Shown here: piece by piece, positions 8 through 33,275 of the stretch | How the letters are laid out: each line of letters opens with the position of its first letter | How positions within the stretch are numbered: position 1 is the first letter of the stretch | Sequence record: SRR2962707_5325 | Reading direction: 5' to 3' (one strand) | Length of the DNA stretch: 42,082 bases | The notes under the pieces: generated by a model | What the model was told of the DNA's origin: nothing | What the model saw: only the letters and a program-made list of their open reading frames with translations | Databases searched by the model: none | Program-made: the position numbers and the translations under genes

Positions 8-340
8 ATGGGTAGAACAAATTTTCTGGGCGAATTCGAAGAGCTCATCTTAACCATGGTTTTGATCCTGGATGACAATGCCTATGGCAACACCGTAGTG
101 AAGTCGATCAAGGAACATCAAAAACGTGAAGTCAACCTCAGCTCGGTGCATATCACCCTCTACAGGTTGGAAGAAAAAGGACTATTGGAATCTTATATGG
201 GAGGTGCCACCAACGAACGCGGCGGGCGCAAAAAGCGCTATTTCAAAATCACTAACACGGGCAAGGCATTGCTTCAGGAGATGAAGGATGCGCGAACCAA
301 TCTTTGGAAACTCACTCCTCAACTCAATTTCTCTTCATGA
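8..340 (+). CDS. PadR family transcriptional regulator (PadR-1)
   Basis: 110 aa; LGEFEE, AYG, TLYRLEEKG and ERGGRKKRYFKIT winged-helix motifs; stop overlaps the permease start (ATGA, 337-340). Confidence 0.93.
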   Translation: MGRTNFLGEFEELILTMVLILDDNAYGNTVVKSIKEHQKREVNLSSVHITLYRLEEKGLLESYMGGATNERGGRKKRYFKITNTGKALLQEMKDARTNLWKLTPQLNFSS

Positions 341-3084
341 ACCGTTCAAGGCCACCGAAGCTTTTTTCAAACCTATTCAAATGGTACTGCCGGAAGCCGC
401 TTTATGAGCAAATCATGGGCGATCTGGAAGAACAATTTGAAGAGGATCTAAAAAATCAAGGTCAAATCAGGGCCAGTCTCCGATTTAGCTGGACGGTCAT
501 CCGGTTCTTTCGGCCTGGCATTATTAAAACCGCGAACAGTGGAAAACTCAATTATATAGGAATGTTCAAAAACAATATCAAAATGGCCTTGAGAAGTGCT
601 TCAAGGCAGAAACAATTCACTACTCTGAATTTGCTGGGACTCACACTAGGCATAGCCACCAGTATGGCCATCGCCTTATACATTCACGATGAGCTCACCT
701 ACGACACCTTCCATGCCAATGGAGATCGCATCTATCGGGTCAATCAGCCTAACATCTGGGGCAACTGGGATGAAATGATCTCCAACACAGGGCCCAATGT
801 AGCGGTGGCACTACGAAGCGAAGCACCTGAATTTGAGGAAGTAACACGAATCCTGAGTCAAGGTTCTCAAACCGTATATCCAGGAAAAGACGAAGAACGA
901 AGAAACACCTATAAAGAAGAAGGATTTTTTGCCGCTGAGAACAACTTCTTCAAGGTTTTCTCCTTCAAATTCCTTGCAGGTGATCGTTCTACGGCATTAA
1001 ACGACCCAAAAAGTATCGTGCTTACCCTTGAAACAGCACACAGGTATTTTGGTAAAAACGTAAGTCCTGAAGCATTGATCGGTCAAGCCGTGGACATCAA
1101 AAGCTGGAACGGAGTGTGGGAACCTTTTGCCATCAGGGGAGTCATTCAGGATGTCCCTGATAAGTCTCACCTTCAATTCGACATGTTGGTTTCTATGAGC
1201 AGCTACCAGGACCTTTTGGATATACATGGATGGAAATGGCATTGGACTGCTTTCGCTACCTACGGATTGGTTCATAAGCACACAGATGTTGTCGCTTTGG
1301 AAGAGAAAATCCAGGCACTGCCTCCCAAATGGGCAGCCCCCTCCACCGAACGGGTCTTTAATCAAACATTTGAAGAGTTTACCGATGGTCACCCATGGAA
1401 GCTCGATTTGCAACCACTAAGAGAAGTTTACATCGCAGGATCTCCCGAATCGCAATCTTTTGGTCCAACGGGTAATCCACTATTCATTAAAATTTTTGGC
1501 GCCATCGGAATGCTGGTGCTTGCCTTGTCCATCATCAATTTCATGAATCTCTCCACCGCCAGAGCTTCCAACCGAGCGAAAGAAATTGGTGTGAGAAAAG
1601 TGCTCGGATCTGAGCGCATCACATTGATGGGTCAATTCATTACCGAATCTACCCTCTTCGTTACCATCAGTACACTATTGGGAATCGGACTGCTTCAATT
1701 CCTCATGCCCTGGTTTAATGAGCTGACCGGGAAGGAGATGGAGCTATTGACTCTACTATCCAATGGTGCCGTATTTGGAATTTTGGTGGGATTTGTGGTG
1801 CTAATAAGTTTGCTCTCTGGTGCATATCCAGCACTTTATCTCTCCTCTTTTGGCCCCATTAAGGCTTTGAAAGGAAATCTGAGGCAAGGTTTTAAGGGTA
1901 AGAAACTGAGAAATTCCCTGGTAGTATTTCAATTCACCATCTCCATCGGGCTGATCATATGTGCCTCATTCGTACAAAAGCAGCTGACCTATGCCTCCTC
2001 ATTAGACCTTGGATTCGAAAAAGAGCATATCCTGCAAGTCCATAACATCGAACAGTTTGGCTTTGAGACAGAGAATATAAAAACCAACCTTGCATCTATT
2101 CCTTCCATTACGGCTGTTGGTAAGTCGTTTGGCGTTCCACCAAACATTTGGTCAGGAGACCGATACAAAACCACTGATCCAAATGCCGATGTAGTTCAAT
2201 TCAACAATGTGCGAACGGAAGCAGACTACCTGGAACTCCTTGGATTGGAGTTTCTTGCCGGAAACAATTTCGATCTATCCAAGCCAACGGACAAGTACAA
2301 GATCATTATCAACGAATCGGCTACCATAGCATTGGGTTGGGGGGATGCCTCAACGTATGCACAAGACTCACCAATTGGTAAAAAGATCGCACTGGCTTCA
2401 GGAGACGAGGATGTGTTCGAGGTGATTGGTGTGGTAAATGATTTCAACTTCAACAGTGTTCGAAGAGAAATTGCCCCGATCATCATCATAAACCATCAAA
2501 ACGATAAGGTATGGGATTATGGTGCCGGAAGGTCCTTCTACTCATTGAAACTGGATCCTTTGGCCATTAAACAATCGGGTGATCTGATGAAAGTAATCGA
2601 GCAAGTAGAATCACAACTTGCTAAAGTTGATGCGACGGTTCCTTTCGAATTCAGCTTCATGGATCAGGACTTCAATGACACCTTTCGATTTGAGCAAAAG
2701 ATGGGTAGTGTGCTCAATTTATTTACACTCATGGCATTGATGATTGGTTGCCTGGGTTTGTTTGGTCTGGCGGCTTTTTCAGCAGAACAGCGAATCAAGG
2801 AATTGAGTATCCGAAAAGTACTTGGCGCAAATGTTTCCAGCCTGGTGTATTCCTTCACGTCAGAATTCACCCGACTGATACTTGTCGCCATCGTATTGGC
2901 TAGTCCTATCGCCTGGTACCTTATGGACCAATGGCTCTCCAGCTTCGCCTATCGAACGCCCATCACTTTGTGGGTATTTGTAGCTGCATCCATCGGGGCG
3001 ATTCTGATTGCCACCTTAACGATCGGCTACCAATCACTCCGCATTGCACATAAAAATCCGGCTGAAACATTGAAAGATGAATAA
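337..3084 (+). CDS. MacB/FtsX-type duplicated ABC permease with N-terminal prefix domain (permease 1)
   Basis: Prefix PPK...GDLEEQF...RP; two MacB-PCD+FtsX modules (NFMNLSTAR..RAKEIGVRKVLG; EQRIKELSIRKVLGA); ends NPAETLKDE. Start moved from TTG 304 to ATG 337 because of the ATGA coupling and paralogue N-termini. Confidence 0.92.
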   Translation: MNRSRPPKLFSNLFKWYCRKPLYEQIMGDLEEQFEEDLKNQGQIRASLRFSWTVIRFFRPGIIKTANSGKLNYIGMFKNNIKMALRSASRQKQFTTLNLLGLTLGIATSMAIALYIHDELTYDTFHANGDRIYRVNQPNIWGNWDEMISNTGPNVAVALRSEAPEFEEVTRILSQGSQTVYPGKDEERRNTYKEEGFFAAENNFFKVFSFKFLAGDRSTALNDPKSIVLTLETAHRYFGKNVSPEALIGQAVDIKSWNGVWEPFAIRGVIQDVPDKSHLQFDMLVSMSSYQDLLDIHGWKWHWTAFATYGLVHKHTDVVALEEKIQALPPKWAAPSTERVFNQTFEEFTDGHPWKLDLQPLREVYIAGSPESQSFGPTGNPLFIKIFGAIGMLVLALSIINFMNLSTARASNRAKEIGVRKVLGSERITLMGQFITESTLFVTISTLLGIGLLQFLMPWFNELTGKEMELLTLLSNGAVFGILVGFVVLISLLSGAYPALYLSSFGPIKALKGNLRQGFKGKKLRNSLVVFQFTISIGLIICASFVQKQLTYASSLDLGFEKEHILQVHNIEQFGFETENIKTNLASIPSITAVGKSFGVPPNIWSGDRYKTTDPNADVVQFNNVRTEADYLELLGLEFLAGNNFDLSKPTDKYKIIINESATIALGWGDASTYAQDSPIGKKIALASGDEDVFEVIGVVNDFNFNSVRREIAPIIIINHQNDKVWDYGAGRSFYSLKLDPLAIKQSGDLMKVIEQVESQLAKVDATVPFEFSFMDQDFNDTFRFEQKMGSVLNLFTLMALMIGCLGLFGLAAFSAEQRIKELSIRKVLGANVSSLVYSFTSEFTRLILVAIVLASPIAWYLMDQWLSSFAYRTPITLWVFVAASIGAILIATLTIGYQSLRIAHKNPAETLKDE

Positions 3085-5656
3085 AGCCCATCCTCCCAAA
3101 TTGCCAATCAAGTTTCTTCGATGGTATTGTAAAAAACCATTGCAGGAATCCATCATGGGTGATCTCGAAGAGCAATTCGATGAGGACCTTGAAGCCTTTG
3201 GCAAAAGAAAAGCCCGAAGAAGGTTTGCATGGAATGTGCTTCGTTTCTGTCGCCCTGGAATTATTAAAACTGTCAAAAACGGTTCACGATTAAATCATTA
3301 CAGCATGTTCAAGCACAATTTACTTATCACATTCAGAAGCTTTAAAAGACATAAAAGCACCTTTCTTATTAACCTGATTGGCCTTTCTTCCGGATTGGCG
3401 TGTGTGCTGTTTATCTACCTGTGGATTACAGATGAGGTTCAAAAGGACAAATTCCATAAAAACGCATCCCGGATCTATCAAGTCTATTCCAACCACCATG
3501 ATGCCAATGGAATATTTACCTGGAAAGGTGTTTCCGGACTTTTAGAAGACGAAATCAACGCGAACATTCCGGAGGTAAAGCGAGTAGTGGCTGCTACCGA
3601 TGCGCATGAATACACCCTGAGTACGGAGAATGATGCTTTCAAGGTCACAGGTAAATTTGGAAATGAACAGTTTTTAAATGTCTTCTCTTACCCTGTTTTG
3701 CATGGCAACCGCGAAACAGCCCTTTCCGATCAATCAGGAATTGTCATCACTGAGTCCCTTGCCAGGAAGCTCTTTAATACCACAGACGCGTTGGGCAAAG
3801 AGGTTGATTTTCACTTTTGGAGTTATGAAAAAACGCTGACGGTAACGGCTGTCCTGAAGGACCTTACATCGGCTACTTCTGATCAATTCGAGTTTATCAT
3901 GTCATGGGATTACTATCATGATGAACTCATCAGCTACAAACAATGGGGAAATTTCTACGCCCGAATCATTGTTGAGTTGAATGATCAGGCTGACAAGCCT
4001 GTGGTTGAAGAAAAGATTGACGCCATTTTTAAAGAGAAGCTCGAGGATGACAAGGTAGATTTGATCCTGACCAAATACGCTGATCAATATCTCTACAACC
4101 ATTATGAAAACGGGAAAGTCGCCGGCGGACGAATTGAATATGTGCGGCTCTTTTCCATTGTGGCATGCTTCATTTTGGTCATCGCATGCATCAATTTTAT
4201 TAATCTATCTACTGCAAAAGCCACACAAAGGACCAAAGAAATTGGTGTAAAAAAATCACTTGGTGCGACCAGAAAAGCCCTTGCCAGTCAATATTTCCTG
4301 GAGACTAGCTGTCTGGCCCTGATGGGATTCATTATGGCCATTGGTCTGGTTTATTTCTTTCTTCCGAGCTTCAATCAGCTGGCACAAAAAGAGCTCATTC
4401 TGACCGCCGACAGGTCGTTGATTTATGGCTCCTTGGCTATCCTGATCCTGGTCGGAATAATAGCCGGCACTTATCCGGCCCTGTACCTTTCCGGACTGAG
4501 TGTATTGACTTCTTTGAAATCGAATCTGAAAGAGAGCAAACATGGGTGGGGACGCAAAACATTGGTCGTTGCACAATTTTCCATTTCCATTGTGCTCATT
4601 GTTGCAACCGTGTTGGTACAGCAGCAGATGCGCTACGTGCAGTCCATGAACCTTGGATATGACAGGGACAACCTTGTCTATTTTGAACGAGAAGGGAACC
4701 TGTTGGAAAGCCACGATTCATTCATCGAGGAACTGAAAAAGGTTTCAGGAATCAAAAAGGTGACTGCTTCCGGATTCATGGTTGGGGGTATGAACTCAAC
4801 AGGAGGTGTGAAATGGGAAGGCAAAACGGAAGAGGAACGCGTACAATTCTGGGAAACCAAAGCAGATTTCGGATTGATTGATCTATTAGGAATAGAGGTG
4901 GTTTTGGGTAGGGACTTTGATCCTTCGTTTTCCAATGAATCCGAAAACATCATCTTCAATGAAACAGCTATCCGTGCCATGGGGATGGAAGATCCAATCG
5001 GAAAGACCATTGATCATTATTCCGGGAAGAAGAAGATCATCGGGGTAGTCAAAGATTTCAACATTGTATCTCTTCACAAAAAAGTGGAGCCTGCCCTCTT
5101 CCTCTACAATCCTGAACAAACACATTTCATCATGGCCAAAGTAGAAAAGGGAAAAGAGCTCGAGACCATCATGCAAATGGAATCCGTCTTCAAGGATTTT
5201 AATCCGAATTATCCCTTTGCGGTCAAGTTCGTGGATCAGGACTATCAGGCACTTTATGCTTCAGAAGAGCAAGTGGCAGATCTGTCTGGTTATTTCTCCG
5301 GACTGGCCATCCTTATCTCTTGCCTGGGGCTATTTGGGTTGGCATCTTTCACCACCGAAAGACGTGTCAAGGAAATCGGGATCAGAAAGGTATTGGGATC
5401 AGGGGTTTGGAACATCATATTCCTGTTGACGAGAGATTTCTCCAAAATGGTGGTCATTGCCATCTTCATCGGGATTCCGGTCAGCTATTTTCTAGGCAAA
5501 AAGTGGCTTGAAAATTATGCCTACAGCATTGATCTGAGTTGGTGGTACTTTGGTGGGGCTGCTTTGGTTGCTCTGCTCATTGCCTGGCTAACGGTGGGGA
5601 TTCAAACCATCAATGCCGCCACTGCCAATCCGGTAGAATCCTTGAAAGATGAGTAA
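3077..5656 (+). CDS. MacB/FtsX-type duplicated ABC permease with prefix domain (permease 2)
   Basis: 859 aa; same architecture, RTKEIGVKKSLGA and RVKEIGIRKVLG motifs; 8-bp overlap with permease 1. Confidence 0.93.
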   Translation: MNKAHPPKLPIKFLRWYCKKPLQESIMGDLEEQFDEDLEAFGKRKARRRFAWNVLRFCRPGIIKTVKNGSRLNHYSMFKHNLLITFRSFKRHKSTFLINLIGLSSGLACVLFIYLWITDEVQKDKFHKNASRIYQVYSNHHDANGIFTWKGVSGLLEDEINANIPEVKRVVAATDAHEYTLSTENDAFKVTGKFGNEQFLNVFSYPVLHGNRETALSDQSGIVITESLARKLFNTTDALGKEVDFHFWSYEKTLTVTAVLKDLTSATSDQFEFIMSWDYYHDELISYKQWGNFYARIIVELNDQADKPVVEEKIDAIFKEKLEDDKVDLILTKYADQYLYNHYENGKVAGGRIEYVRLFSIVACFILVIACINFINLSTAKATQRTKEIGVKKSLGATRKALASQYFLETSCLALMGFIMAIGLVYFFLPSFNQLAQKELILTADRSLIYGSLAILILVGIIAGTYPALYLSGLSVLTSLKSNLKESKHGWGRKTLVVAQFSISIVLIVATVLVQQQMRYVQSMNLGYDRDNLVYFEREGNLLESHDSFIEELKKVSGIKKVTASGFMVGGMNSTGGVKWEGKTEEERVQFWETKADFGLIDLLGIEVVLGRDFDPSFSNESENIIFNETAIRAMGMEDPIGKTIDHYSGKKKIIGVVKDFNIVSLHKKVEPALFLYNPEQTHFIMAKVEKGKELETIMQMESVFKDFNPNYPFAVKFVDQDYQALYASEEQVADLSGYFSGLAILISCLGLFGLASFTTERRVKEIGIRKVLGSGVWNIIFLLTRDFSKMVVIAIFIGIPVSYFLGKKWLENYAYSIDLSWWYFGGAALVALLIAWLTVGIQTINAATANPVESLKDE

Positions 5657-8248
5657 GCAGATCAGACCACCGAAAACATTTGCCCGCTTCTTTGAATGGT
5701 ACTGCAGGGACATACTCAAGGAGTCCATTATGGGCGATCTGGAGGAGCAGTTCGATGAAGACCTTGAGGTATTCGGAAAGCAAAAAGCCCGCAGAAGGTT
5801 CGCCTGGAATGTGATCCGGTTCTTTCGTCCCGGGATCGTCCGAAAATTGGAAGGAAGTGTCAAACTAAACAACTATGGTATGTTAAAAAGCTATTTGAAA
5901 ATTGCATTCAGGATATTCAAAAAAGAGAAAGGTTTTACCCTGATCAATGTATTCGGCCTGGCAATCGGTATTGCATGCAGCCTGTTTATCTACCTGTGGG
6001 TGCAGGATGAAAAGAGCTACAACGACCATCTGACAAATGGCGAAAATGTTTCGTATGTCATGAGCCGTGAAACGATTGCCAACGACAAGATTGTAACCTA
6101 CGAAACCTGCCCCTATAATCTAAAAGCCGTTTTGGAAGGGTACTCGGCCATTGAAAAGGTGGCCATCATGTCCTTTGGAAACTGGATGGCTTTTGAGAAA
6201 AATGAGTCCGTAATTGAATGGAGAGGAATTGATGCTTCTGAGGAGTTTTTTGACCTTTTTGAAATCAACTTTCTCGCTGGTAGTCCGGCTTCTATGGCGG
6301 ACAACCCACAAACAATGGCCATTTCAGAAACCTTTGCCAAAACCTTTTACGCGGAAGACTGGGAAAAAATGGAGCTGGTCGGCACCACCATCACCAATGA
6401 ATGGGGAGAATCCTTCCAGGTGGCAGGTATCTATGAAGACCTTCCTGAAAAATCCACGTTGGACATTGCCTTCGTCGTGCCATTCTCCCACCGACTCAAA
6501 AACAACGATTGGCTCAAGGATTGGGGGAACAACTCGAACCAAATGTATGTGAAGGTTGCGGATGGCGTATCCCTTTCAGATGCTGAGTTGAGCATTAAAA
6601 AAGCAGTCAGTAAAGTCCGGCCTGAGGAAGAGCCCACGAGAGAACTGTTCCTGCTTCCTTACAAGGATCAATATCTATACAATCGGTTTGATGAAGGTGA
6701 GATTGCCAGTGGGCGGATAGAATACATCCGACTGCTTTCCTTTGCAGCGATACTGGTGCTCCTTTTAGCCAGCATCAATTTCATGAACCTTTCTCCGCCA
6801 GATCTGCCAAAAGAGCACGTGAAACAGGCGTTAGAAAAACACTGGGAGCGATCCGACTCCAACTCAAAACCCAGTTTCTGACTGAATCCATTCTCATCAC
6901 GACGTTTGCGCTGCTTGTGGCAATGTTGATTGTTTACCTTGGCCTTGAGCAGTTCAATTATATCACCGATAAGCAGATTTCAATTAACACCCTAACAACC
7001 ATTAACCTATTATACCTGTTGGGTTTTGTTTTAGGACTTGGTTTCTTCTCCGGGCTGTATCCGGCCTTCTACCTTTCCTCCTTGAATGTCATTAGTTCCC
7101 TCAAAAACGGATTTAAGAACAACCGTCTTGATGTGCTATTTCGCAAAGGATTGGTGGTCTTTCAATTTCTCATCACAGTTACCATGATCACCGGGGCGGT
7201 GATCGTTTATCAGCAGGTGACATACATTCGATCTAAAAACATTGGCCTAGACCGATCGAATCTCATTCGCACATGGAAACATGAAATGGATGCCGATAAA
7301 GACTATGCTCTTTTCAAAGATGAGCTGATGAAACGACCCGGAATCGAAAGTGTCTGCATGGTCAACCAGACCTTGATTAACATTGGTAATTCCACTTCTT
7401 CTGTGCACTGGAACGGAGAGCCTGATGATGATTTTGAATTCTACATTTTAAAATCATCACCGGACTTCATCCCAACTACAAAAGTGCAGCTTAAAGAAGG
7501 CCGCAATTTTGATTGGAACCTTCAATCCGATACCGCCAACTATATCATTAATGAAACGGCTCAAAAACTTATGAAAATGGATGACCCCATTGGACAGGAT
7601 CTGACACTGTGGGGGAATAAGGGTAAAATCGTTGGTGTCATCGAGGATTTTCATATCGCTTCGCTTCATAAAGCAATTGAACCGCTCATTATTCATTACG
7701 ACCAGCCTGGTACCTGGATGATCATGGTGAGAACCAAGCCAGGAGAAGTAGATCAGGGATTGGCCACTTTGGAAGAAGTGTACCATCTCTGGAACCCCAA
7801 ACGTACATTCGATTACCAGTTTATGGATCAGGTATTCAATCAACAATACCGAAGTGAATTGCTCATCAAGGACCTTTCTTTTTATGCTACCATTGTTGCT
7901 ATCGCGATTTCTTGTCTTGGCCTCTTGGGCCTGGTGGCCTATACAGCCGAGCGCAAGACCAAAGAGATCGGCATTAGAAAAGTCTTCGGAGCGAACTTGC
8001 ATCACATTCTTGTCCTGCTATCTAAAGAGTTTGTATTTCTTATAGGAATCTCGTTACTTCTGGCTTTACCTCTTTCCTATTACCTGATGGATTTATGGCT
8101 GAAAGATTTCGCTTACCAGGTAAGTCTGAAATGGTGGCATTTCGCCGTTAGTATCTTGCTGATTCTCTTCATTTCTAACTCAATCATTTGTGGTCTTGCT
8201 ATCCGATCATCAAGAATCAACCCTGCAAACTCACTAAGGGACGAGTAG
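5649..8248 (+). pseudogene. MacB/FtsX-type permease with prefix domain (permease 3), frameshifted near 6794
   Basis: ORFs 5649-6881 and 6917-8248 join if one base is added between 6794 and 6795, restoring NFMNLS[T]ARSAKRARETGVRKTLGA and an 866-aa product like its paralogues; may be a sequencing error. Confidence 0.85.
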
Positions 8249-8277: not shown

Positions 8278-8334
8278 ACTACAATTAGGAATTAACCTGT
8301 TCTTTTTCTACTATTGCAATACTGCAATTAGGAA
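8278..8334 (+). promoter_or_regulatory. Putative PadR-2 operator pair and promoter
   Basis: Direct repeats ACTACAATTAGGAA (8278-8291) and ACTGCAATTAGGAA (8321-8334) flank a -7-like TACTATTG (8309-8316) and the palindrome TATTGCAATA (8312-8321). Confidence 0.6.
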
Positions 8335-8340
8335 AAAACT

Positions 8341-8685
8341 ATGGGAAAATTTCAATTAGGTGAATTTGAGGAGATCGTCATGTTGACGGTAGGTGTGCTC
8401 TTTGGTGATGCATACGGCGTTTCGATCAAGAAAGAAATTGAGGAACGGCTGAATCGAAAAGTGAGTGTAGGTGCACTTCAATCGGCACTTAAGCGGTTGG
8501 AAGACAAAGGCTACCTGACTTCCAAAGAAGGAGAATCCACCAGTGAAAGAGGCGGACGTCCTAAACTATATTTTACCCTTACTGCCTCCGGAAGAGATGC
8601 CATCGAGCATGCTCGGCAGGTTAGAAATCAACTCTACAACGAAATCCCAAAAGTCGCCCTGGATATCAAATTCAGTACCTCATGA
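8341..8685 (+). CDS. PadR family transcriptional regulator (PadR-2)
   Basis: 114 aa; LGEFEE, AYG, ALKRLEDKG, ERGGRPKLYFTLT; ATGA overlap with permease 4. Confidence 0.93.
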   Translation: MGKFQLGEFEEIVMLTVGVLFGDAYGVSIKKEIEERLNRKVSVGALQSALKRLEDKGYLTSKEGESTSERGGRPKLYFTLTASGRDAIEHARQVRNQLYNEIPKVALDIKFSTS

Positions 8686-11291
8686 AAAGTGCTCCAACAC
8701 CACCGAAGTACTTATTGCGCTTTTTCAAGTGGTTTTGCGATCCCAGACTTCACAAATACCTGGAAGGTGATCTGCTGGAGTTATTCGAAGAAAATATCAG
8801 GAACAAAGGTACCTCACAGGCAAAATGGCTATTCGCCTTCGACGTGATCCGACTGTTCCGACCGGACATTATCAGAAAGTCAAAAACTCAAAAACTCAAT
8901 AATATGGACATGTTTAATAACTATTTAAAAATTGCCTTCAGGGTCTTCAAAAGGGAACGATCCTTTAGCCTTATCAATTTATTCGGACTCATTCTCGGCT
9001 TCACTTGTTGCCTGACCATTTATCTGTTCATCGACGATGAGCTTAGCTATGATCAAATGCACACGGATGCCGACCGAATCTACCGACTATCTTCTGCCTA
9101 CATGAGAGAAGGTCAATGGGAGCCCTATGCCTCCAACTCGTGGCGCACCGGGGAAGTCTTTGCTGCCAATTTTTCTGAAGTAGAAGAGTTGGTAAGAATA
9201 CGCAGACAGGAAGAATTCATCATGCACAATGACAAACGGATTCTTGAAGACCGGATCGCGTATGTCGATGCGAATTTCTTCCAGGTCTTTTCTTTTCCGC
9301 TGATTTCAGGTGATCGCAATACTGCTCTTGATGGTGCCGGAAAAGTGGTCATCAGTGAAAGTACTGCTCAAAAATATTTTGGAGATGCCAATCCCATGGG
9401 TCAGGTGCTAACGATCAGCGATACGCTGTATCAGCTGCAGATAGCAGGCGTTATGGAAGATATGCCACCCAATTCACACTTTCATTTTGACCTCCTCATC
9501 TCACCTCAAACCCAGCGTCTGACAGCTCCAGATTACATGTATACCAGCGTGGGGTGGGATTCACAGCGTATTTATGTGAAAATGAAAGAAGATGCCAATA
9601 TGCAGGCCATCGAAGATCGATTTCCGGATTTCATTGACACAAACCTGGATTACCTGACGGCCGGAAATTTCAAATTGTTCTTCCAACCGCTATTGGATAT
9701 CCATCTCAAATCTGATCTAGGCCTGGAGCTAGAAGACAATGGTGACATTGACAACATCTACATCTTCTCTTTTGTAGCTCTCTTTATTCTGCTGATAGCA
9801 TGTATCAACTACATCAACCTCACAACTGCTCGCTCCCTTCGTAGAGCCAAAGAGGTTGGCATGCGAAAAGTGCTTGGAGCCCAGCGAGGAAACCTGATCA
9901 ATCAATTTTTGATCGAATCCTTCCTCATGACTTTTATTGCTCTGATCAGTTCGGTTATTCTAACCATCCTGTTACTTCCTCGATTCAATGCCTTTGCCGA
10001 TAAGATGATCAGTGCATCCGTCTTGTTTGAGGGTCAGCTAATACTTGCGCTGCTAGTTGCTTACTTCGTGATTTCATTATTGGCCGGTGGCTACCCTTCG
10101 CTCGTTCTTTCATCCTTCAAGGCAGGATCCATTATTCGGTCTGGTAAATACACCGAAAAAGGTTCTGTGCTATTTCGCAAAGCATTGGTCATAGTGCAGT
10201 TTACGATCTCCATAGGATTGATTGCCTCCACTTTGGTTGTATTCAATCAACTCAAATTCATGCAGGAGAAGGAACTGGGAGTGAATGAAGAACTCGTGCT
10301 TTCCATTCCACTTCAAACCATGGATACCAGCCAATTCAAATCATTCAAAACGGAAGCCATGAGGAGTTCAGCCGTCAGCGGCCTGGCCTATTCCAACATG
10401 AGACTTCCGGGATGGATCAACAACAGCACCTTCTACACCGCCCAGGATGTGGAAATAGATGAAGAAGCCAGAAAATCGATGAAGATCATTCGTGTGGATG
10501 AGGACTTCTTTAATCTTATGGAAGTGGAGCTCCTAGGAGGACGTAATTTTTCCAGAGCATATCCATCTGAGCACACCTCCTCGATCATTCTCAATGAAGC
10601 AGCTATCAAGCAACTTGGCTGGGAAGACCCTATTGGAAAATGGGTGAAGATCGGAAGATATCAGTTGAATACAGTTGGCGTGGTGAAGGACTTCCATTTT
10701 GAATCGCTGCACAGAAAGATCCCACCTACCATTTTTGTTCTTTCCAATACCTATCTCAGGTGGGCGTATGTTCGGATCGATGGACGACAAATGGATACCG
10801 CCTTGGAACATCTCGAAGATGTCTATACCGGGCTCGTCACGAATCGTGATTTTGAGTACACCTTCGTCTCGGATGATGTAGCACGCCAATATGAGCGAGA
10901 AGCCAAATTCACCCAGGTGTTTGAAATTTTCACTGTGCTTGCCATTCTCATCGCAAGCCTGGGCACATTCGGGCTCATCTCATTTGCTGCCGAAAGAAAA
11001 ACAAAAGAAATAGGGATCAGGAAAGTGCTTGGTGCCTCTCTTGGCAACCTAACAATGCTTCTAACCCGGGAATTCCTACTGTTTTTAGGCATTGCCAGCA
11101 TCATTGCCTGGCCGGTAGCGTACTACTTCATGAAGGGATGGATAGACGATTTCATCTACCACACCACCATAGGATTCATACCTTTCATCATCGCGACAAT
11201 TATCGCGTTGCTGATTGCTGTATCCACAACGATTACCAAATCATTGAGGACAGCCAAAGCCAACCCGATTGAGTCACTCAGAGATGAATAA
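8682..11291 (+). CDS. MacB/FtsX-type duplicated ABC permease with prefix domain (permease 4)
   Basis: 869 aa; PPK...EGDLLELF prefix; NYINLTTARSLRRAKEVGMRKVLGA; ends NPIESLRDE. Confidence 0.93.
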   Translation: MKSAPTPPKYLLRFFKWFCDPRLHKYLEGDLLELFEENIRNKGTSQAKWLFAFDVIRLFRPDIIRKSKTQKLNNMDMFNNYLKIAFRVFKRERSFSLINLFGLILGFTCCLTIYLFIDDELSYDQMHTDADRIYRLSSAYMREGQWEPYASNSWRTGEVFAANFSEVEELVRIRRQEEFIMHNDKRILEDRIAYVDANFFQVFSFPLISGDRNTALDGAGKVVISESTAQKYFGDANPMGQVLTISDTLYQLQIAGVMEDMPPNSHFHFDLLISPQTQRLTAPDYMYTSVGWDSQRIYVKMKEDANMQAIEDRFPDFIDTNLDYLTAGNFKLFFQPLLDIHLKSDLGLELEDNGDIDNIYIFSFVALFILLIACINYINLTTARSLRRAKEVGMRKVLGAQRGNLINQFLIESFLMTFIALISSVILTILLLPRFNAFADKMISASVLFEGQLILALLVAYFVISLLAGGYPSLVLSSFKAGSIIRSGKYTEKGSVLFRKALVIVQFTISIGLIASTLVVFNQLKFMQEKELGVNEELVLSIPLQTMDTSQFKSFKTEAMRSSAVSGLAYSNMRLPGWINNSTFYTAQDVEIDEEARKSMKIIRVDEDFFNLMEVELLGGRNFSRAYPSEHTSSIILNEAAIKQLGWEDPIGKWVKIGRYQLNTVGVVKDFHFESLHRKIPPTIFVLSNTYLRWAYVRIDGRQMDTALEHLEDVYTGLVTNRDFEYTFVSDDVARQYEREAKFTQVFEIFTVLAILIASLGTFGLISFAAERKTKEIGIRKVLGASLGNLTMLLTREFLLFLGIASIIAWPVAYYFMKGWIDDFIYHTTIGFIPFIIATIIALLIAVSTTITKSLRTAKANPIESLRDE

Positions 11292-17169: not shown

Positions 17170-19779
17170 TCACTCTGTCCTCAGCGCATCCACCGGATTA
17201 CCGAAAGAAGCTCTCAGCGAGTGATAACTCACAGTTATCAAGGCCACCAACAATCCACCCAAAATGGCAAATCCATACATCCACCAGGTTATGGTGATAC
17301 GGTATTCATAGTTTTCCAACCAGCCATTCAGGAAATAGGAAGCCAGTGGTACCGCGAGGACAGACGCGACAATGACCAAAATCGAAAAGTCTTTTGAAAG
17401 GAGTTTCCAAAGTGAAGTCACTGAAGCACCCAACACTTTTCGAATACCTACCTCTTTGGTTCGTTGCTCTGTGACAAAAGCTGATAAGCCAAACAGGCCG
17501 AGGCAGCTGATCAAAATGGCCAGACTGCTAAAGAAAGTGGCCAGGCTTCCGATTTTTTCTTCTGATCTGAATTTGGTTGCATATTCATTGTCCACAAACT
17601 CAAAGTTGAAGGGATGTCCTTGCAACACCTCCTCAAATTTCTCCTGAATCATGGGTAGTGCTTCGACGTACCTGGCATCAGGTTTAATTCGAATAAAAAG
17701 AAATGAGTTTGCCCATTCTGTTGGGAAAAGCATCAACGGTTTTGGTTCATCGTACGGTGATCCTTTGATCATGTCTTTGACCACACCGATGATGGTGAAA
17801 TTATTTCGTCCATTAAATTCCCCTCTTGATTGTATTTGTGTGCCAATTGGATCAATCAAGCCCATTTTTTCCACCGCAGATTCACTGACAATGATATTGG
17901 AGGATTCATTTGAGAATTCCCGTGAAAAATCTCTTCCTGCCACCAACTCCCATTGAGTGGTTTTTCCGTATTCTGGTGTTACATAAATTGTGTTGAATGT
18001 AACACGCACACGCTCACCTGTTTCCTTGAGGCTAAATCCGTCATTATTCCCAAGTGTATTCATCAACGGGTAGTTGGCGGTTGCAACCTCCTCCACTACT
18101 CCGGTCTGTTTCAGTCTTTCTCTCAAAACATCATATTTCTTATAATACTCTACTGATCTGCCCCTTACTACAATGAGATCTTCCTGGTTGTAGCCAACCG
18201 GGCGGAGCTTGGCATGTTGTATCTGATTGTACACGGTGATGGTTCCGATCATCAACAGAATGGAAATGGTAAATTGAAAAATCACCAGTCCTTGTCGCAA
18301 TCGCACACTGGCGATCCCCTGTTTCAAAGTGCCACTCAAGGCCTTTAATGGTCGGAAAGAAGAGAGGAAAAATGCTGGATAGCTCCCAGCGACCAGGGCA
18401 GAAACCAATGAAAACAGAATGCCTGATAGCCACATCGTTCCACTTGTCCATGGGATACTCAGGGTTTTGTCAGATATACCGTTGAACCATGGCAGTATTA
18501 ACCATACCACCAGGATTGATAGAATAAATGAGGCAAATGCATACAATGTGGACTCAGCAAGAAACTGATATACAAGCTGAGATCGGCGGGAACCAACAGC
18601 TTTTCGGATGCCTACTTCTTTAGATCGGTTCTGATAACGAGCTGTATTCAAGTTGATAAAATTGATGAATGCAAGAAGCAGAACAAATGCACCTATGATG
18701 CCATAAAGTTTCACGAACTGCATTCTGCTACTTGTAACCTTACTGCCATTCTCGAAAGAAGAATTCAGGTGCCAGTCCTTCATTGGAAGAACGAAGAGTT
18801 CCATCTGCCTTTCTGTCCCTTCCAAATGTCCTTTCATCATATTACTTATGATAGTAGAAGCTTTAGATGGGTCTATTCCCTTTTTCAGTTGGGCATAAAC
18901 TCGTATGTCATAATTATCCCAGACATATGGATTCTGCTCATTGTAAATAAGCTCCAAAGAAGCTATATAGGAAGCATTGGCAAATGTGGAATTGCCAGGC
19001 ACATCTTTGTAGACCCCTGTCACTTTTAGGTCAGCCTGCAGATTCAGATTAACCAGCTCTCCGACTGGATTTTTATCTCCAAAAAACTTCTTTGCCAACG
19101 ATTCTGAAAGAAGGATTCCACTTCGATCATTCAGCCCACGTATGTCACCTGCCAGCATTTCTAATGTTAACATTTCAGGAGCATCCGGCTGAAAGAAATA
19201 CCCGATTTGATCAAATGACTGCTTACCAACGGTCAGCAGTTGAGCCCGGGATCTGAAAAAGGTCATAACCACTTTGTCAAATACCGTTTCGTACTGCTCT
19301 TTTAACGTAACGCCGATCATACCGGTCAGCGATGTATTTACACCAATACTGCCATCTGCATCGACATCCTTTCGGGAGACCTGTACTATTTGGTCATAAT
19401 TTTTATGATATTGATTGAAAGTGAGTTCATCGTGAATCCACAATCCAATAAGAATAGTAACAACCATGCCCATCGCTAGTCCGCCGATATTGATAGTTGA
19501 AAAAACCTTATTCTTCAGCAGTATGCGATAGCTGATTCGGAAGTTGTGTTTGATCATGGTCATGATAATCGAGTTTGATTTGAAATATTTGAAAGCGAAA
19601 GGCCTGAGATAGTTGAATACCTGATAATAGTAATTGAGTCGGGCTTTTCTTAAGGAGTGTTTCTGTAAGGTCTGATAGAACTTTTCATCCAGATCACCAA
19701 GTACTTCTTCTGCCAGGCTTTCTTTCAGGAAAAACAACAAAAGCCTTTCTGCCAGTCTCGGTGGCTGAGGATTTTTCAT
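17170..19779 (-). CDS. MacB/FtsX-type duplicated ABC permease with prefix domain (permease 5)
   Basis: 869 aa; PPRLA...EEVLGDLDEKF prefix; RSKEVGIRKAVG and EQRTKEVGIRKVLGA; ends NPVDALRTE. Confidence 0.93.
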   Translation of the reverse strand: MKNPQPPRLAERLLLFFLKESLAEEVLGDLDEKFYQTLQKHSLRKARLNYYYQVFNYLRPFAFKYFKSNSIIMTMIKHNFRISYRILLKNKVFSTINIGGLAMGMVVTILIGLWIHDELTFNQYHKNYDQIVQVSRKDVDADGSIGVNTSLTGMIGVTLKEQYETVFDKVVMTFFRSRAQLLTVGKQSFDQIGYFFQPDAPEMLTLEMLAGDIRGLNDRSGILLSESLAKKFFGDKNPVGELVNLNLQADLKVTGVYKDVPGNSTFANASYIASLELIYNEQNPYVWDNYDIRVYAQLKKGIDPSKASTIISNMMKGHLEGTERQMELFVLPMKDWHLNSSFENGSKVTSSRMQFVKLYGIIGAFVLLLAFINFINLNTARYQNRSKEVGIRKAVGSRRSQLVYQFLAESTLYAFASFILSILVVWLILPWFNGISDKTLSIPWTSGTMWLSGILFSLVSALVAGSYPAFFLSSFRPLKALSGTLKQGIASVRLRQGLVIFQFTISILLMIGTITVYNQIQHAKLRPVGYNQEDLIVVRGRSVEYYKKYDVLRERLKQTGVVEEVATANYPLMNTLGNNDGFSLKETGERVRVTFNTIYVTPEYGKTTQWELVAGRDFSREFSNESSNIIVSESAVEKMGLIDPIGTQIQSRGEFNGRNNFTIIGVVKDMIKGSPYDEPKPLMLFPTEWANSFLFIRIKPDARYVEALPMIQEKFEEVLQGHPFNFEFVDNEYATKFRSEEKIGSLATFFSSLAILISCLGLFGLSAFVTEQRTKEVGIRKVLGASVTSLWKLLSKDFSILVIVASVLAVPLASYFLNGWLENYEYRITITWWMYGFAILGGLLVALITVSYHSLRASFGNPVDALRTE

Positions 19780-20123
19780 CCTAAAACGAAATTGAGTTTA
19801 CCCTCAGCAAATGCTGGAAATTGATTCCATAGGGACATTTTTAACGCCCTGGAAGTCTCCAAAGCATGCTGTCCGGCGGCAGTGATCACATAGATTCGCT
19901 TCCTCCTCCCTCCTCGTTCCGAGGAAGCCCCTCCCATTTCTGAGGTGAGAAATCCTTTTTCCTCAATGCGATTCAATGTAGAATGAACTGCACCAATGGA
20001 GACCGGTCTCTTTGTCTGCGATTCAAATTCCTCTGCGATCCTAAATGCATAGGCGTTTTCTCCCAGTATGCCTACCAGCAATAAAATCGTTTCTTCGAAA
20101 TCACCCAGTTTACTTTCCTTCAT
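19776..20123 (-). CDS. PadR family transcriptional regulator (PadR-3)
   Basis: 115 aa; LGDFEE, TLNRIEEKG, ERGGRRKRIYVIT; ATGA overlap with permease 5. Confidence 0.93.
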   Translation of the reverse strand: MKESKLGDFEETILLLVGILGENAYAFRIAEEFESQTKRPVSIGAVHSTLNRIEEKGFLTSEMGGASSERGGRRKRIYVITAAGQHALETSRALKMSLWNQFPAFAEGKLNFVLG

Positions 20124-20130
20124 GGTGTTG

Positions 20131-20189
20131 TTACTAAATTGTAGAACAAATATACGTGCCCGTATCTAGTTTGTTCTACTTTTTAGTAA
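20131..20189 (-). promoter_or_regulatory. PadR-3 promoter with inverted 20-bp operator-like repeats
   Basis: TTACTAAATTGTAGAACAAA (20131-20150) and TTTGTTCTACTTTTTAGTAA (20170-20189) are 18/20 inverted copies; a perfect minus-strand -7 element TATATTTG (20154-20147) overlaps the proximal arm. Confidence 0.7.
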
Positions 20190-20241
20190 GAAATATCTAA
20201 AATCGCTTCTCAGGCTCATTAAACACACATTTTGTTTATTT

Positions 20242-20300
20242 TACTTACAAAAGTGAAACTTTAGTATCTTCGCCTCAGTATAATACTGACAATTGTGTAA
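20242..20300 (+). promoter_or_regulatory. Putative PadR-4 operator pair and promoter
   Basis: Imperfect direct repeats TACTTACAAAAGTGAAA (20242-20258) and TACTGACAATTGTGTAA (20284-20300); -7-like TATCTTCG (20265-20272); palindrome TCAGTATAATACTGA (20275-20289). Confidence 0.55.
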
Positions 20301-20303
20301 AAT

Positions 20304-20642
20304 ATGGAGAATATCAAGCTTGGCAACCTAGAAGAACTTGTGCTCTTACTCGTGGGCGTACTTTATAATGAAGCCTATTCTGTGAACATTGTGCTGGAAT
20401 ATGAGAAGCAAACAGGCAAAAAAATTAATGTAAGCGCGATTCACAATGTGCTCTATCGGCTTGAGGAAAAAGGGTTTCTCGAGTCCAGACTTAGTGAATC
20501 TACTTCGGAGCGAGGTGGGAAAAGGAAAAGATTATTTTACCTGACTCCCTATGCCAGTCGAGCACTGGATGAGCTCGCCACGCTGCGGGAACGGCTCAGG
20601 CACCAAATTCCACAGCAAGCTATCCATTTTACAAAAGGCTAA
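20304..20642 (+). CDS. PadR family transcriptional regulator (PadR-4)
   Basis: 112 aa; LGNLEE, VLYRLEEKG, ERGGKRKRLFYLT; TAATG overlap with permease 6. Confidence 0.93.
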   Translation: MENIKLGNLEELVLLLVGVLYNEAYSVNIVLEYEKQTGKKINVSAIHNVLYRLEEKGFLESRLSESTSERGGKRKRLFYLTPYASRALDELATLRERLRHQIPQQAIHFTKG

Positions 20643-23236
20643 TGAACTTCAAAACCACACCACCAAAACTAGCCCTTCGAATCTTTCGATGGTACTGCAG
20701 GTCTGACAGACAAGAAGAACTGGAAGGAGACCTGGAGGAATTCTTCTTTCTCAGGTTGGAAAATGGCTCTCCCCTATGGAAAGCACGGATGTTTTTCTGG
20801 TGGAATGTGATTCGCTGCTATCGGACGTACTCAAAAAAGCAAACTCAAAATAACTCGACTATGTATCCTCTTATTAAATCTTACTTTAAACTGGCGTTGC
20901 GGCACTCCTGGAAAAACAAATGGTCTGTATTGATCAATGTAGTTGGGCTTGGGATGGCCCTGAGCATGTGTGTATTTATGTATACAGTGTATGCTTACAA
21001 TTGGGAATTTGACAGCTACTACGGTAATACCGATGATATTTATCGGCTTCATTCAATGACCTTTGAAAACGGAAATGAGCTTAGAAACGAAATAAGTCCA
21101 CTGGCGCTGGATGATAAGCTTAGAAATGAATTCAGCGGAATCGAAAAAGTATCCAGTTATGTAGACTATTCCTTAAGCGTGAGAAAGGGAACCGACTTTT
21201 TTACAGAGCGAGTCGCTTTCGTTTCTGATGAATTTTTTGAGATGTTCAACATGCCTCTATGGTATGGGTCATTTAAAGATTTTGAAACTCAACCCCTGGC
21301 ATTTATAGCCAAAAAGACGGCTACCAAATATTTTGGTAACGATGTGGCCATCGATAGACAACTGACTCTTTATGTCGGTGATAATAAGATTGAAGTAATC
21401 GTTGCTGGGGTGTTTGAGCGAATCCCGGAAAATAACAGCTTTGATGGAGAGATTTACCTAAACTTCCAGCATTATGCGAATGTTCGTGAATTCGATAAAA
21501 ATGATTGGAACAATCGTCGTTACGTTTCGCACTTTTTCCAGGCGTCAAAAAATAACATTCAGTCAATAGAATCCAATCTTCAGGATTTTATTAAGCTTCA
21601 GAATGAAGGTCACCCGGAAATGAAAGTAAGCCGATTTGAAGTGGTTCCTTTCAGAAGTCCTGTCATTCAGGCCGATAAAATCAACAGGCGCTACACCAAC
21701 ACCCGTCTACGACCTGCCGTAAAGCTCATTTTTACCACACTCATTTCCATGATTTTTCTGATTGCTTGTTTCAATCTGGCCAACACTTCCATGGCGATGA
21801 TCAGTAAGCGGTTGAAGGAAATCGGTATCCGAAAAACGCTGGGTTCAGAAAGCAAGCAAATCTTCATACAATTTCTATTTGAAATGGGAATTATCTGCGC
21901 CATGGCATTTGTCATTGCGGTATCAACCTCCAATATGACTTCAAGAGCCATCCTCGGACTTTTTGGTGGAGATTTTATTCTTCAGGATACGGACATTACA
22001 GGCGTACTATTATTTGTCGCCGCTTTCTTATTGGTAACAACTTTGGTGGCTGGATTTCTGCCTGCACTTTACGCTTTAAGATTTCAACCTGTGGCGATTC
22101 TAAGACGTTCGGTTAAGCTGAAAGGCGTGAGCTGGCTCAACAAGACACTTACGATTGCCCAATTCGCATTCTCTATAGCTGTGTTGACAGTTGGGATTAC
22201 ATTTTCTCAAAACAAGGAATATCTGGATCAATTAAGCCTGGGCTATCAGAAAGATGGAATCTTCGTGCTCAGTTTAAAAAGTAATGAACATTACGCCGAG
22301 CTAAAACAGCGAGTAGATCAATTGCCAAATGTGGAGACGGCAGGGACGCGCAATCACATCAGCCAACATAGCTCTTCCAGTGTCATGACAATCGACACTA
22401 CTTCACAGGAAGTCAGAACAAATTCTGTGGGCAAAGGGTACCTCGCTCTGATGGGCATTGATGTGGTAACCGGTAGAGGTTTTCTCGAGTCCAGCGAAGC
22501 AGATATGGACAATTCCATTCTTGTCGATCAGGAGTTTGCCAAAAGATTTTATGACGGAGAAAATCCGGTCAATCAGGTGGTGAAACTCGGAGACGAGCGA
22601 AAAACCATTGTTGGGGTCACTGCCAATATCATCGATGATGTATATGAGGATGCCAGACCAGAACCTACCATTTACACCTTGGCCAAAGAGAATCACATGT
22701 TGAAGCTTATCGTAAAAGCAAATGAAACCGATTTGGAAGCTGTCAATGAAGAATTGAAAACCATCTGGACCGAGCTGATCGATTTGCCATACAGTGGACA
22801 GCTTCAAGAAGATCTTGCACTTGGCTCAGCTGTCAACGATACTGACAATCTCCAAAAAATCTTCCTGGTCATGGCTATGCTTGGCGGATTCTTGAGCCTT
22901 GTAGGCATCTTCTCTTTGGCCAAACTCAATGTAGCCAGAAGGTTAAAAGAAATCAGCATTCGCAAAGTACTTGGTGCACGCTTTGATCAACTCATGGTAG
23001 GAACGAACAGATCCTTCTTGTTGGTTGTCATCCTGTCCCTATTCCTGGGTACTGCCTTAGGCTATTTCACAACATCGACAGTTTTGGACATGATTTACAA
23101 ATATCATGTTGCAGTTTCGGTATGGACAACACTTATCTGTGGCTTCCTGATTATACTGTTTTCCATCTCCATGATCACCATGGCTGTGTTTGTTCCGGCC
23201 AAAGCCAACCCGGTTGTCGGACTAAGAGATGAATAA
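20642..23236 (+). CDS. MacB/FtsX-type duplicated ABC permease with prefix domain (permease 6)
   Basis: 864 aa; PPKLA...EELEGDLEEF prefix; NTSMAMISKRLKEIGIRKTLG; ends NPVVGLRDE. Confidence 0.93.
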   Translation: MNFKTTPPKLALRIFRWYCRSDRQEELEGDLEEFFFLRLENGSPLWKARMFFWWNVIRCYRTYSKKQTQNNSTMYPLIKSYFKLALRHSWKNKWSVLINVVGLGMALSMCVFMYTVYAYNWEFDSYYGNTDDIYRLHSMTFENGNELRNEISPLALDDKLRNEFSGIEKVSSYVDYSLSVRKGTDFFTERVAFVSDEFFEMFNMPLWYGSFKDFETQPLAFIAKKTATKYFGNDVAIDRQLTLYVGDNKIEVIVAGVFERIPENNSFDGEIYLNFQHYANVREFDKNDWNNRRYVSHFFQASKNNIQSIESNLQDFIKLQNEGHPEMKVSRFEVVPFRSPVIQADKINRRYTNTRLRPAVKLIFTTLISMIFLIACFNLANTSMAMISKRLKEIGIRKTLGSESKQIFIQFLFEMGIICAMAFVIAVSTSNMTSRAILGLFGGDFILQDTDITGVLLFVAAFLLVTTLVAGFLPALYALRFQPVAILRRSVKLKGVSWLNKTLTIAQFAFSIAVLTVGITFSQNKEYLDQLSLGYQKDGIFVLSLKSNEHYAELKQRVDQLPNVETAGTRNHISQHSSSSVMTIDTTSQEVRTNSVGKGYLALMGIDVVTGRGFLESSEADMDNSILVDQEFAKRFYDGENPVNQVVKLGDERKTIVGVTANIIDDVYEDARPEPTIYTLAKENHMLKLIVKANETDLEAVNEELKTIWTELIDLPYSGQLQEDLALGSAVNDTDNLQKIFLVMAMLGGFLSLVGIFSLAKLNVARRLKEISIRKVLGARFDQLMVGTNRSFLLVVILSLFLGTALGYFTTSTVLDMIYKYHVAVSVWTTLICGFLIILFSISMITMAVFVPAKANPVVGLRDE

Positions 23237-23281: not shown

Positions 23282-23292
23282 TATAATTGTGT

Positions 23293-32925: not shown

Positions 32926-33275
32926 CAAATCTCCCCCTCACCCTTTGGATCATGGCCCTGCTGTATATCGCTGCAGGCGTGAATCACTTCATCATGCCAC
33001 GTTTTTATATGAGCATCATTCCGCCTTTTCTACCTTTCCCTAAACTGATAAATCAGCTAAGTGGAGTGGCGGAGATTGTATTAGGGGTAGGCCTGCTGAT
33101 CCCTGATTATACCTCATTGGCTGCCTGGGGAGTGATCGCTTTGCTCATAGCCGTGTTCCCTGCCAACATCTATCATTTCATGAAAGGATGGCGAAAAAAG
33201 AAAATGGTTTGGGTGCTTGCTTTGCGTCTTCCATTACAATTTCTTTTGATCTGGTGGGCATATTTATACACCTGA
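32922..33275 (+). CDS. DoxX/MauE-like membrane protein
   Basis: AGVNHF.MP.FY..IIP, SGVAEI, AVFPANIY and RLPLQ motifs; four hydrophobic segments. Confidence 0.8.
   Translation: MTNLPLTLWIMALLYIAAGVNHFIMPRFYMSIIPPFLPFPKLINQLSGVAEIVLGVGLLIPDYTSLAAWGVIALLIAVFPANIYHFMKGWRKKKMVWVLALRLPLQFLLIWWAYLYT

Follow-up and report, generated by a model that had tools for sequence, protein, structure and literature searches.

Prefix domains of duplicated MacB/FtsX-type permeases diversify with the PadR regulators of their operons, apart from the permease bodies

Background

In systems of the Mlc-PtsG type a transporter sequesters a repressor at the membrane, and in systems of the BceAB-BceS type sensing takes place via a MacB-type permease. 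A dyad consisting of a HAAS domain and a PadR-like winged helix-turn-helix regulator was predicted from gene neighbourhoods by Ravi, Aravind and co-workers (mSystems 2024, PMC11237479); the passages of that study drawn on here describe the HAAS superfamily as having three helices in succession, of which the third is kinked at a conserved GxP motif, propose that the helical domain signals to PadR via a groove at the kinked third helix, and list HAAS fusions to FtsX-like transmembrane (TM) domains with MacB/PCD domains. The portions of two reports on PadR operons of Listeria that were consulted (PMC6624303, PMC4517056) show genetic links and no binding. The present analysis concerns a DNA stretch of 42,082 nucleotides from sequence record SRR2962707_5325 (the window, meaning this stretch at its full length), which encodes six duplicated MacB/FtsX-type permeases (P1-P6) that bear an N-terminal prefix, every one of them in a PadR-led operon. 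The first operon consists of the regulator PadR-A followed by P1, P2 and P3.

Judging from sequence, each of these permeases is a protein of two modules: a cytoplasmic three-helix prefix of ~65-78 residues, here also called a tag, and a duplicated MacB/FtsX-type body from TM1 on. Comparison of the window with other genomes shows each PadR type with a tag of its own, and bodies that have been swapped between operons always bear the resident tag.

Results and discussion

Prefix and body of the permeases in the window

The identities over a 40-residue prefix core that were reported in the original prediction were recovered exactly on recounting (35/40 for P2 and P3, 27/40 for P1 and P3, 17/40 for P4 and P3, 13/40 for P5 and P3), as was the observation that 19 of the 35 identical residues of P2 and P3 are written in different codons (92 of 120 bases are identical); the gene layout likewise agrees with the placement of P1-P3 under one PadR and of P4 and P5 under others. 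The whole prefix is 59-67% identical among P1-P3 and 23-45% identical in all other pairs of the window. Synonymous sites of the prefix are saturated among P1-P3, with proportions of synonymous differences (pS) of 0.87-1.00 and of nonsynonymous differences (pN) of 0.23-0.29. Bodies are 30-33% identical within P1-P3, and any two of P1-P5 have 29-33% body identity; thus the bodies of P1-P3, which had been described as divergent, are indeed as distant from each other as from those of P4 or P5. The discordance between prefix and body in the window is real.

Body relatives in other genomes and the position of the seam

In other genomes, P1, P2 and P3 each have relatives with 49-61% body identity that stand under other PadR types and whose prefixes are dissimilar. 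The nearest body to that of P1, in locus L006, is 61% identical to it, with a prefix that is 22% identical. The body of P2 is 54% identical both to that of O027_1 in locus L057, where the prefix and the PadR are each 43% identical, and to that of O005_2 in locus L003, where the prefix is 67% and the PadR 89% identical. The body of P3 is 54% identical to that of O015_1 in locus L009, with 34% identity of the prefix and 39% of the PadR.

A maximum-likelihood body tree with 35 rows places P1, P2 and P3 in three separate clades with 100% support, and a clade of P1, P2 and P3 is rejected by the approximately unbiased (AU) test on the body data (log-likelihood difference 1062, p-AU 1.4e-7). The same test on the prefix data, with groups chosen after the pairwise identities were known and before the prefix tree was known, rejects both the body clade of P2 (p 2.8e-5) and that of P3 (p 6.0e-5). 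Congruence of the prefix tree with the body tree, the outcome that the original prediction had named as speaking against it, is therefore rejected in both directions.

The excess identity between operon mates extends over columns ~10-78 of the alignment and is lost from TM1 on. In eight pairs of permeases with close bodies and different PadRs, identity is ~35% as far as column 60 and amounts to 68-70% after column 75. By this evidence the permeases are mosaics, with a sharp, fixed seam between the prefix and TM1.

Prefix and PadR across genomes

From other genomes, 75 loci were recruited with patterns from the prefixes of P1-P4 (the four closest of the six), among the best 80 of 250 confirmed stretches (359 matched), and were annotated with purpose-built hidden Markov models for PadR, prefix and body. 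Operons in which a PadR gene precedes two to four prefix permeases are common in these loci. The 58 same-operon pairs have a mean identity of 0.655 in the prefix and 0.347 in the body, compared with 0.449 and 0.307 in the 8588 other pairs. Across loci (4980 pairs), the Spearman correlation is 0.646 between prefix and PadR, 0.160 between prefix and body, and 0.163 between body and PadR; in pairs whose bodies are less than 0.33 identical, prefix identity increases with that of the PadRs, being 0.39 where the latter is below 0.5 and 0.58 where it exceeds 0.8.

For trees, 95 permeases from 58 loci and 69 operons were used, with their PadRs sorted into 18 clusters by single linkage at 70% identity. 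The PadR type changes 17 times on the prefix tree, the minimum possible (shuffled labels gave a mean of 44.6 and a minimum of 42), and 36 times on the body tree (shuffled labels, 44.5). When the 45 single-permease operons are considered alone, there are 15 changes on the prefix tree, again the minimum, and 24 on the body tree, so that operon mates are not needed for the congruence of prefix and PadR. Unsupervised prefix clusters recover the largest PadR cluster (cluster 0) in 95 of 95 rows, without any mismatch among the 95 permeases. On the body tree, the prefix type moves with the PadR type in 15 of 15 independent contrasts (p 6.1e-5); for two other PadR clusters it does so in ~7.6 of 8 and 5 of 7 contrasts, and never the reverse.

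The 4.7-Mb genome of a relative (G006, of L003/L037; loci L078-L114) was fetched regardless of prefix type; all genome-wide counts are from relatives. It encodes 59 permeases that match the prefix family NF038404 and 46 PadR genes. With R for PadR and P for permease, there are 37 operons of the form R-P, four R-PP, one each of R-PPP, R-PPPP and R-PPPPPP, one PadR with a prefix-less permease, and two P-R; a PadR gene precedes 57 of the 59 prefix permeases and directly follows the other two. The PadRs of this genome are well separated from each other (median identity 0.44, 99th percentile 0.62, only one of 1035 pairs at 0.70 or above). Prefix identity is 0.734 within operons versus 0.338 between them, and body identity 0.319 versus 0.275. 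All 21 permeases of multi-permease operons have their nearest prefix in an operon mate, and 6 of the 21 have their nearest body there. There are 28 pairs with prefix identity of at least 0.6, of which 25 are operon mates; the other three are under the most similar PadRs (identities 0.69, 0.69 and 0.96). The expectation that the prefix tree should follow PadR and not the body thus holds for the 95 permeases of 58 loci, for single-permease operons, and for this whole genome.

Predicted contact between PadR and prefix

The AlphaFold2 model of P2 residues 1-78 (mean predicted local distance difference test score, pLDDT, 69.3; core 75-90) has helices at residues 8-17, 20-41 and 43-58, a break at R59-P60, and a helix at 60-67. 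When a PadR-A dimer was modelled together with this part of P2, the interaction score ipSAE was 0.67, 0.68 and 0.68 in three runs and 0.02 in the best of three controls; at least 86% of the contacts were common to the runs, and the pLDDT of the partner was 80. Solved complexes attain the mark used for such models in 51 of 78 cases and mismatched pairs in 2 of 108, and the alignments of the present analysis were not part of the input. A search of PDB sequences with the prefix profile gave no matches at E<=10, so that no solved complex with a sequence relative of the prefix was available for the model to recall.

The predicted interface comprises residues 26-28, 43-45, 48-49, 52, 64 and 74-77 of PadR-A and residues 22, 24-26, 28-33, 53, 56-57, 59 and 61-62 of the prefix. 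Its hub is the invariant prefix residue D29, which faces a nearly invariant A-Y-G of PadR, and its rim is formed by the variable, type-specific prefix residues S25, Q33, N53, R56 and F57. PadR-A residues 43-52 are presumably the recognition helix and 74-77 the wing, as taken from the PadR fold; since the interface includes both, the prefix covers the DNA-reading face of PadR in the model, which suggests that it is placed on that predicted face.

Covariation was computed before the complex model was returned, and alignment columns were then mapped to residues. The mutual information, with average product correction, between PadR and prefix (157 pairs, 114 operons) reaches top values of 0.24-0.38, compared with 0.14 and 0.11 for PadR and two control segments of the body. 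Both residues lie inside the predicted interface in seven of the top ten pairs, against an expectation of ~0.3 (the interface taking up 14 of 106 PadR and 16 of 65 prefix positions), and three of these seven pairs (28:33, 45:57 and 45:53) are among the listed contacts. Charges at PadR column 74 and prefix column 24 are opposite in 78 of the 114 operons and the same in none. The strongest charge-swap pair, PadR column 31 with prefix column 36, is opposite in 54 of the 114 and the same in five, with both polarities represented (in 10 and 15 PadR clusters). The coevolution analysis of PadR and prefix proposed in the original prediction has thus given covariation above the body controls and mostly within the predicted interface, so that the complex model with its controls and the independent covariation agree on which residues would touch.

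A docking site for PadR

The prefix is probably a docking site for the PadR of its own operon, with bodies exchanged as cassettes, the mechanism being suggested by the predicted complex and the covariation. The variable prefix residues co-diversify with the PadR of the same operon. A matching prefix arises either by being kept as the resident prefix when a body is replaced or by being copied from an operon mate onto a new gene, and purifying selection then maintains the match. The acidic helix 2 of the prefix (with its invariant G-D-L-x-E) and helix 3 would sit on the recognition helix and wing of PadR; a PadR held at the membrane would be unable to bind its operator, its release or capture being brought about by changes in the permease. 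P1-P3, all of one tag type, would report to the single regulator PadR-A, and the other three PadR/tag pairs of the window (39-45% PadR identity) would stay separate.

The claim of the original prediction that the prefix encodes specificity for the cognate PadR is supported by the congruence of prefix and PadR and by the complex model with its controls, binding and the role as sensor being predicted. Of the further claim that three sensors converge on one regulator, the shared PadR-A operon stands, but the earlier reading missed that P3 is frameshifted, and the three sensors may therefore be two.

A more specific proposal, offered tentatively on the strength of the model, is that the prefix might be a membrane-tethered acidic anti-repressor lying over the recognition helix and wing of PadR. 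One surface of PadR would in that case recognise operator and tag alike, and divergence of a duplicated PadR would re-key the two together, giving many separate channels with cassette bodies. If so, a cell would have dozens of mutually separate one-step channels from membrane to gene (46 PadRs and 59 tagged permeases), into which new sensor bodies would plug as cassettes at the fixed joint before TM1.

Several points weigh against the prefix as a docking site. Recruitment of the first data set relied on patterns derived from prefixes like those of P1-P4, and the trees of the 95 permeases and of the single-permease operons were made with FastTree. On the prefix data, the AU test gives p 0.49 for the grouping of P1 with its body sister, whose prefix is a very long branch. 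Binding of PadR to the prefix is predicted, the score of the complex being a confidence of the model; a dimer with one further chain is unlike the set on which the tool was calibrated, and the mark was attained as well by 7 of 44 blind pairs of neighbouring genes. The strongest charge-swap pair (residues 32 and 36) lies outside the confident predicted interface, and common descent of the sequences inflates the mutual information. When each of 44 PadR clusters is represented by one member, the maximum charge covariation z has a mean of 4.11 (minimum 3.65; body controls 2.58 and 2.54), which is barely above the experiment-wide null (maximum z of shuffled data: 95th percentile 3.67, highest value 4.40), so that the cluster-level charge covariation is suggestive rather than strong support for PadR-prefix pairing. 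Finally, recent copying of prefix DNA could keep operon mates alike without any PadR.

Selection, copying and alternative explanations

The last of these points leads to the alternative that survives best, although it is unlikely: a neutral concerted evolution in which the prefix, as the sole part where the DNA of operon mates is still similar, is homogenised by gene conversion and, on replacement of a body by recombination, crossovers in the conserved TM1 region leave the resident prefix in place, without recognition by PadR. Copying of this kind does occur. In 8 of the 58 same-operon pairs from other genomes the prefix pS is below 0.5, and these pairs have DNA tracts of 86-100% identity and ~120-240 nucleotides that set in where the prefix begins and are flanked by unrelated sequence. 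Examples confined to the prefix are found in L025 (O085_2/3), L031 (O023_1/2), L012 (O092_3/4) and L066 (O040, O041), with pS 0.11-0.46 and bodies that are 26-54% identical, and G006 also has one low-pS pair of operon mates (pS 0.27). Because the tracts are confined to the prefix, DNA copying between mates is one route by which the match of prefixes is installed. Hence the earlier statement that purifying selection, not recent gene conversion, accounts for the similarity is borne out for the window, with its saturated synonymous sites, but not for these eight pairs elsewhere.

Against concerted evolution as the whole explanation, prefix pS is at least 0.7 in 39 of the 58 pairs and in 19 of 28 pairs of G006, as saturated as in unrelated pairs, while type-specific residues are kept (pN 0.08-0.3). 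Operon mates with saturated synonymous sites retain 51-94% prefix identity, and the G006 permeases E15_3 and E15_6, for example, are 83% identical in the prefix at pS 0.81 and pN 0.08; by these rates the tag is under type-specific purifying selection. Single-permease operons, which have no mate to convert with, are nevertheless perfectly congruent, none of the 95 permeases is mismatched, prefixes from different genomes are the more alike the more alike their PadRs are, and concerted evolution leaves both the complex model and the covariation that matches its interface unexplained.

It is still less probable that the prefix has a partner other than PadR, either an ATPase encoded elsewhere or the fellow permeases by way of an assembly tag, and that its correlation with PadR is secondary. 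No ABC ATPase domain was found in the scanned open reading frames (ORFs) of at least 100 amino acids in the window, neither fused nor as the neighbouring ATP-binding subunit that belongs to MacB-type/type VII systems; if the permeases are transporters a distant partner is required, and an ATPase may be encoded far from the window in the rest of the genome. The tag is also common to operon mates, as an assembly tag would be. However, the congruence with PadR type extends to single-permease operons, a distant ATPase is unlikely to co-vary with the 46 PadRs of one genome, and the covariation and the predicted interface point to PadR itself.

The remaining alternative, that P1-P3 are true tandem duplicates with one shared history, a slow prefix and bodies at the ~30% floor of the family, is compatible with the uniform body identities of P1-P5 taken alone but has been rejected as highly improbable, since P1-P3 have close body relatives under other PadR types with unlike prefixes, the three body clades and the AU test contradict their monophyly, and the prefix does not evolve more slowly than the body, being the less conserved of the two in 39 of 51 orthologue-like pairs (means 0.68 and 0.73).

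The docking reading therefore stands as the preferred one, and its interest lies in the evidence bearing on mechanism: tag and repressor have a common history, from which that of the remaining protein departs. Pairs of PadR and permease are very numerous in Cytophagales, as the 59 permeases of one 4.7-Mb genome illustrate. If the reading is correct, these pairs would offer a compact alternative to signalling by two-component systems, with specificity in a swappable 65-residue tag, useful for the study of paralogue insulation and as a set of parts for orthogonal membrane-to-promoter wiring. The window offers a natural 4 x 6 specificity matrix in one 23-kb stretch, with named residues.

Gene layout of the window

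The regulator and permease genes of the window are listed in Table 1. In the first operon all genes are co-directional and neighbours overlap by 4 or 8 bases, the stop codon of PadR-A and the start codon of P1 sharing the overlap ATGA. The reading frame of P3 shifts by one base near position 6795, in the cytoplasmic loop after TM2; the halves on either side are otherwise open and conserved (region 6780-6920). Six permeases split like P3 were found in the first data set from other genomes, and the frameshift may reflect either a true pseudogene or an assembly error. Among public sequencing runs, a single one contained any part of the window, with 0.06 of the words sampled.

Table 1. PadR-type regulators and MacB/FtsX-type permeases encoded in the 42,082-nucleotide window (aa, amino acids; cut-offs are those of the respective models)
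Gene	Coordinates	Strand	Prefix coordinates	Length	Model score (bits)	Remarks
PadR-A	8..340	+		110 aa	PF03551 39.2 (cut-off 27)	PadR-type winged-helix repressor, first gene of three-permease operon
P1	337..3084	+	337-570	915 aa	NF038404 53.2 (cut-off 35)	MacB_PCD x2, FtsX x2
P2	3077..5656	+	3077-3310	859 aa	NF038404 68.5	
P3	5649..8248	+	5649-5885		NF038404 60.6	two frames (ORFs 5649-6881 and 6917-8248)
PadR-B	8341..8685	+			PF03551 47.7	40% identical to PadR-A
P4	8682..11291	+	8682-8918	869 aa	NF038404 58.6	
P5	17170..19779	-	19546-19779	869 aa	NF038404 62.1	
PadR-C	19776..20123	-			PF03551 34.6	
PadR-D	20304..20642	+			PF03551 23.5, below cut-off 27	aligns with the other three PadRs
P6	20642..23236	+	20642-20881	864 aa	NF038404 44.3	
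P7	33408..35843	+			no NF038404 match	same body family, MacB_PCD x2 and FtsX x2; no PadR upstream

P7 serves as an internal contrast, because its body is of the same family while prefix and PadR are both missing. In place of a PadR gene, P7 is preceded by an ORF for a small DoxX-like membrane protein (the pair spans 32922-35843).

The region upstream of PadR-A falls beyond the edge of the window; palindromes were examined for the other three PadRs. Each has one just 5′ of the gene that is a candidate for a private operator: ATTGCA-N4-TGCAAT at 8313-8328 for PadR-B, 23-nucleotide arms of 87% complementarity at 20128-20192 for PadR-C, and TCAGTAT/ATACTGA at 20275-20289 for PadR-D. The pattern ATGT-N8-ACAT, presumed here to represent a PadR operator, was uninformative, with one match in the window, inside the coding region of P7, versus 0.83 expected by chance.

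Two other features were noted. Directly after P6, at 23287-24137, an Xre-like antitoxin (Xre_MbcA_ParS_C) and a RES-domain toxin are encoded as a pair. The stretch 30148-32925 contains an ORF of 925 amino acids without a Pfam match and has a G+C content of 30.6%, versus ~43-46% around it.

Family membership of prefix, body and PadR

The prefix is the catalogued NCBIfam domain NF038404 (perm_prefix_2, "permease prefix domain 2-containing transporter"), whose cut-off is passed by all six prefixes of the window over residues ~6-66. PF12704 and PF02687 match two stretches each in P1, P2, P4, P5 and P6, and in P3 when both frames are combined, so that the duplicated MacB_PCD and FtsX architecture of ADOP (TIGR03434) is present. 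That family is the best whole-protein NCBIfam match of the bodies; in the five intact genes the alignments are full-length over the 803 positions of the model despite scores (253.2-280.2 bits) below the cut-off of 622.3. The best NCBIfam match of the four PadRs is TIGR03433 (padR_acidobact), at 34.6, 37.0, 30.5 and 22.4 bits, below its cut-off of 101.8; three of the four pass the Pfam PadR cut-off (PF03551), PadR-D being the one that does not.

As in the HAAS superfamily, whose members have a standalone PadR-like winged helix-turn-helix protein as neighbour, a PadR adjoins the prefix permease in six of six cases in the window. At the place of the kinked third helix, the conserved motif of the prefix reads R-P-G and not G-x-P, and the Pfam HAAS model PF22564 had no match at E<=10 among the six window prefixes (80-81 residues each). 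In five genomes of relatives, the sole PF22564 matches were to a DUF1700-like protein and a PspC-type protein, both of which follow a PadR of their own; permeases were not matched.

Canonical HAAS-PadR pairs are present in relatives at L076 1106-2016 and L077 1064-3180 (a PadR with a DUF1700-like membrane protein and a PadR with a PspC-type protein). Homology of the prefix to HAAS was considered and found no support when the prefix profile was compared with these two HAAS proteins by hhalign (probabilities 0.1% and 1.2%).

The nearest named cluster to the prefix in the ESM Atlas is "HAAS domain-containing protein" (0.77), a lead only. Foldseek comparison of the prefix model with the PDB gave no matches at E<=0.001 (best E 3.6), and the best result of a wide fold search with VIA-align had a Z of 6.1, all results being unspecific helical arrangements; the DUF1048 chain 2o4t_A came 35th (Z 4.6, root-mean-square deviation 4.6, 67 residues aligned), tied with many unrelated helical chains.

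Comparison with known systems

The proposed arrangement resembles the Mlc-PtsG and BceAB-BceS types in that the state of a transport protein would be reported to transcription by direct contact at the membrane. It differs from them in that the partner is a PadR, the tag is dedicated and detachable and is predicted to hold the DNA-reading face, and there are dozens of pairs per genome. With respect to catalogued families, the prefixes belong to NF038404 and the bodies and PadRs find their best matches in ADOP and padR_acidobact; the scores against the latter two are far under their cut-offs, and these models name a domain and give no function.

In the full-text literature, a search on "permease prefix domain" returned no paper, searches on HAAS/PadR and on PadR/FtsX/permease/Bacteroidetes returned no description of tag-PadR co-diversification or body shuffling, and no bench study of these PadR-permease pairs was among the literature found. 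The closest described system is the HAAS-PadR dyad. As far as the passages of PMC11237479 extend, the likeness consists in an N-terminal three-helix cytoplasmic domain on a membrane protein that is always beside a standalone PadR-type regulator; in the model of the P2 prefix three helices are predicted, with the third broken at R59-P60. Unlike HAAS, the window prefixes escape PF22564, and type-specific tags, body shuffling, several permeases per PadR, and contact with the DNA-binding face are not described in those passages. The general idea that an N-terminal helical domain signals to a neighbouring PadR, with FtsX/MacB permeases included, has thus been published there as a prediction, and the system of the window is a member of a catalogued family that fits it. 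What the present comparison adds is that tag and repressor co-diversify while sensor bodies swap at a fixed seam, together with candidate contact residues and a predicted occlusion of the DNA-reading face of PadR.

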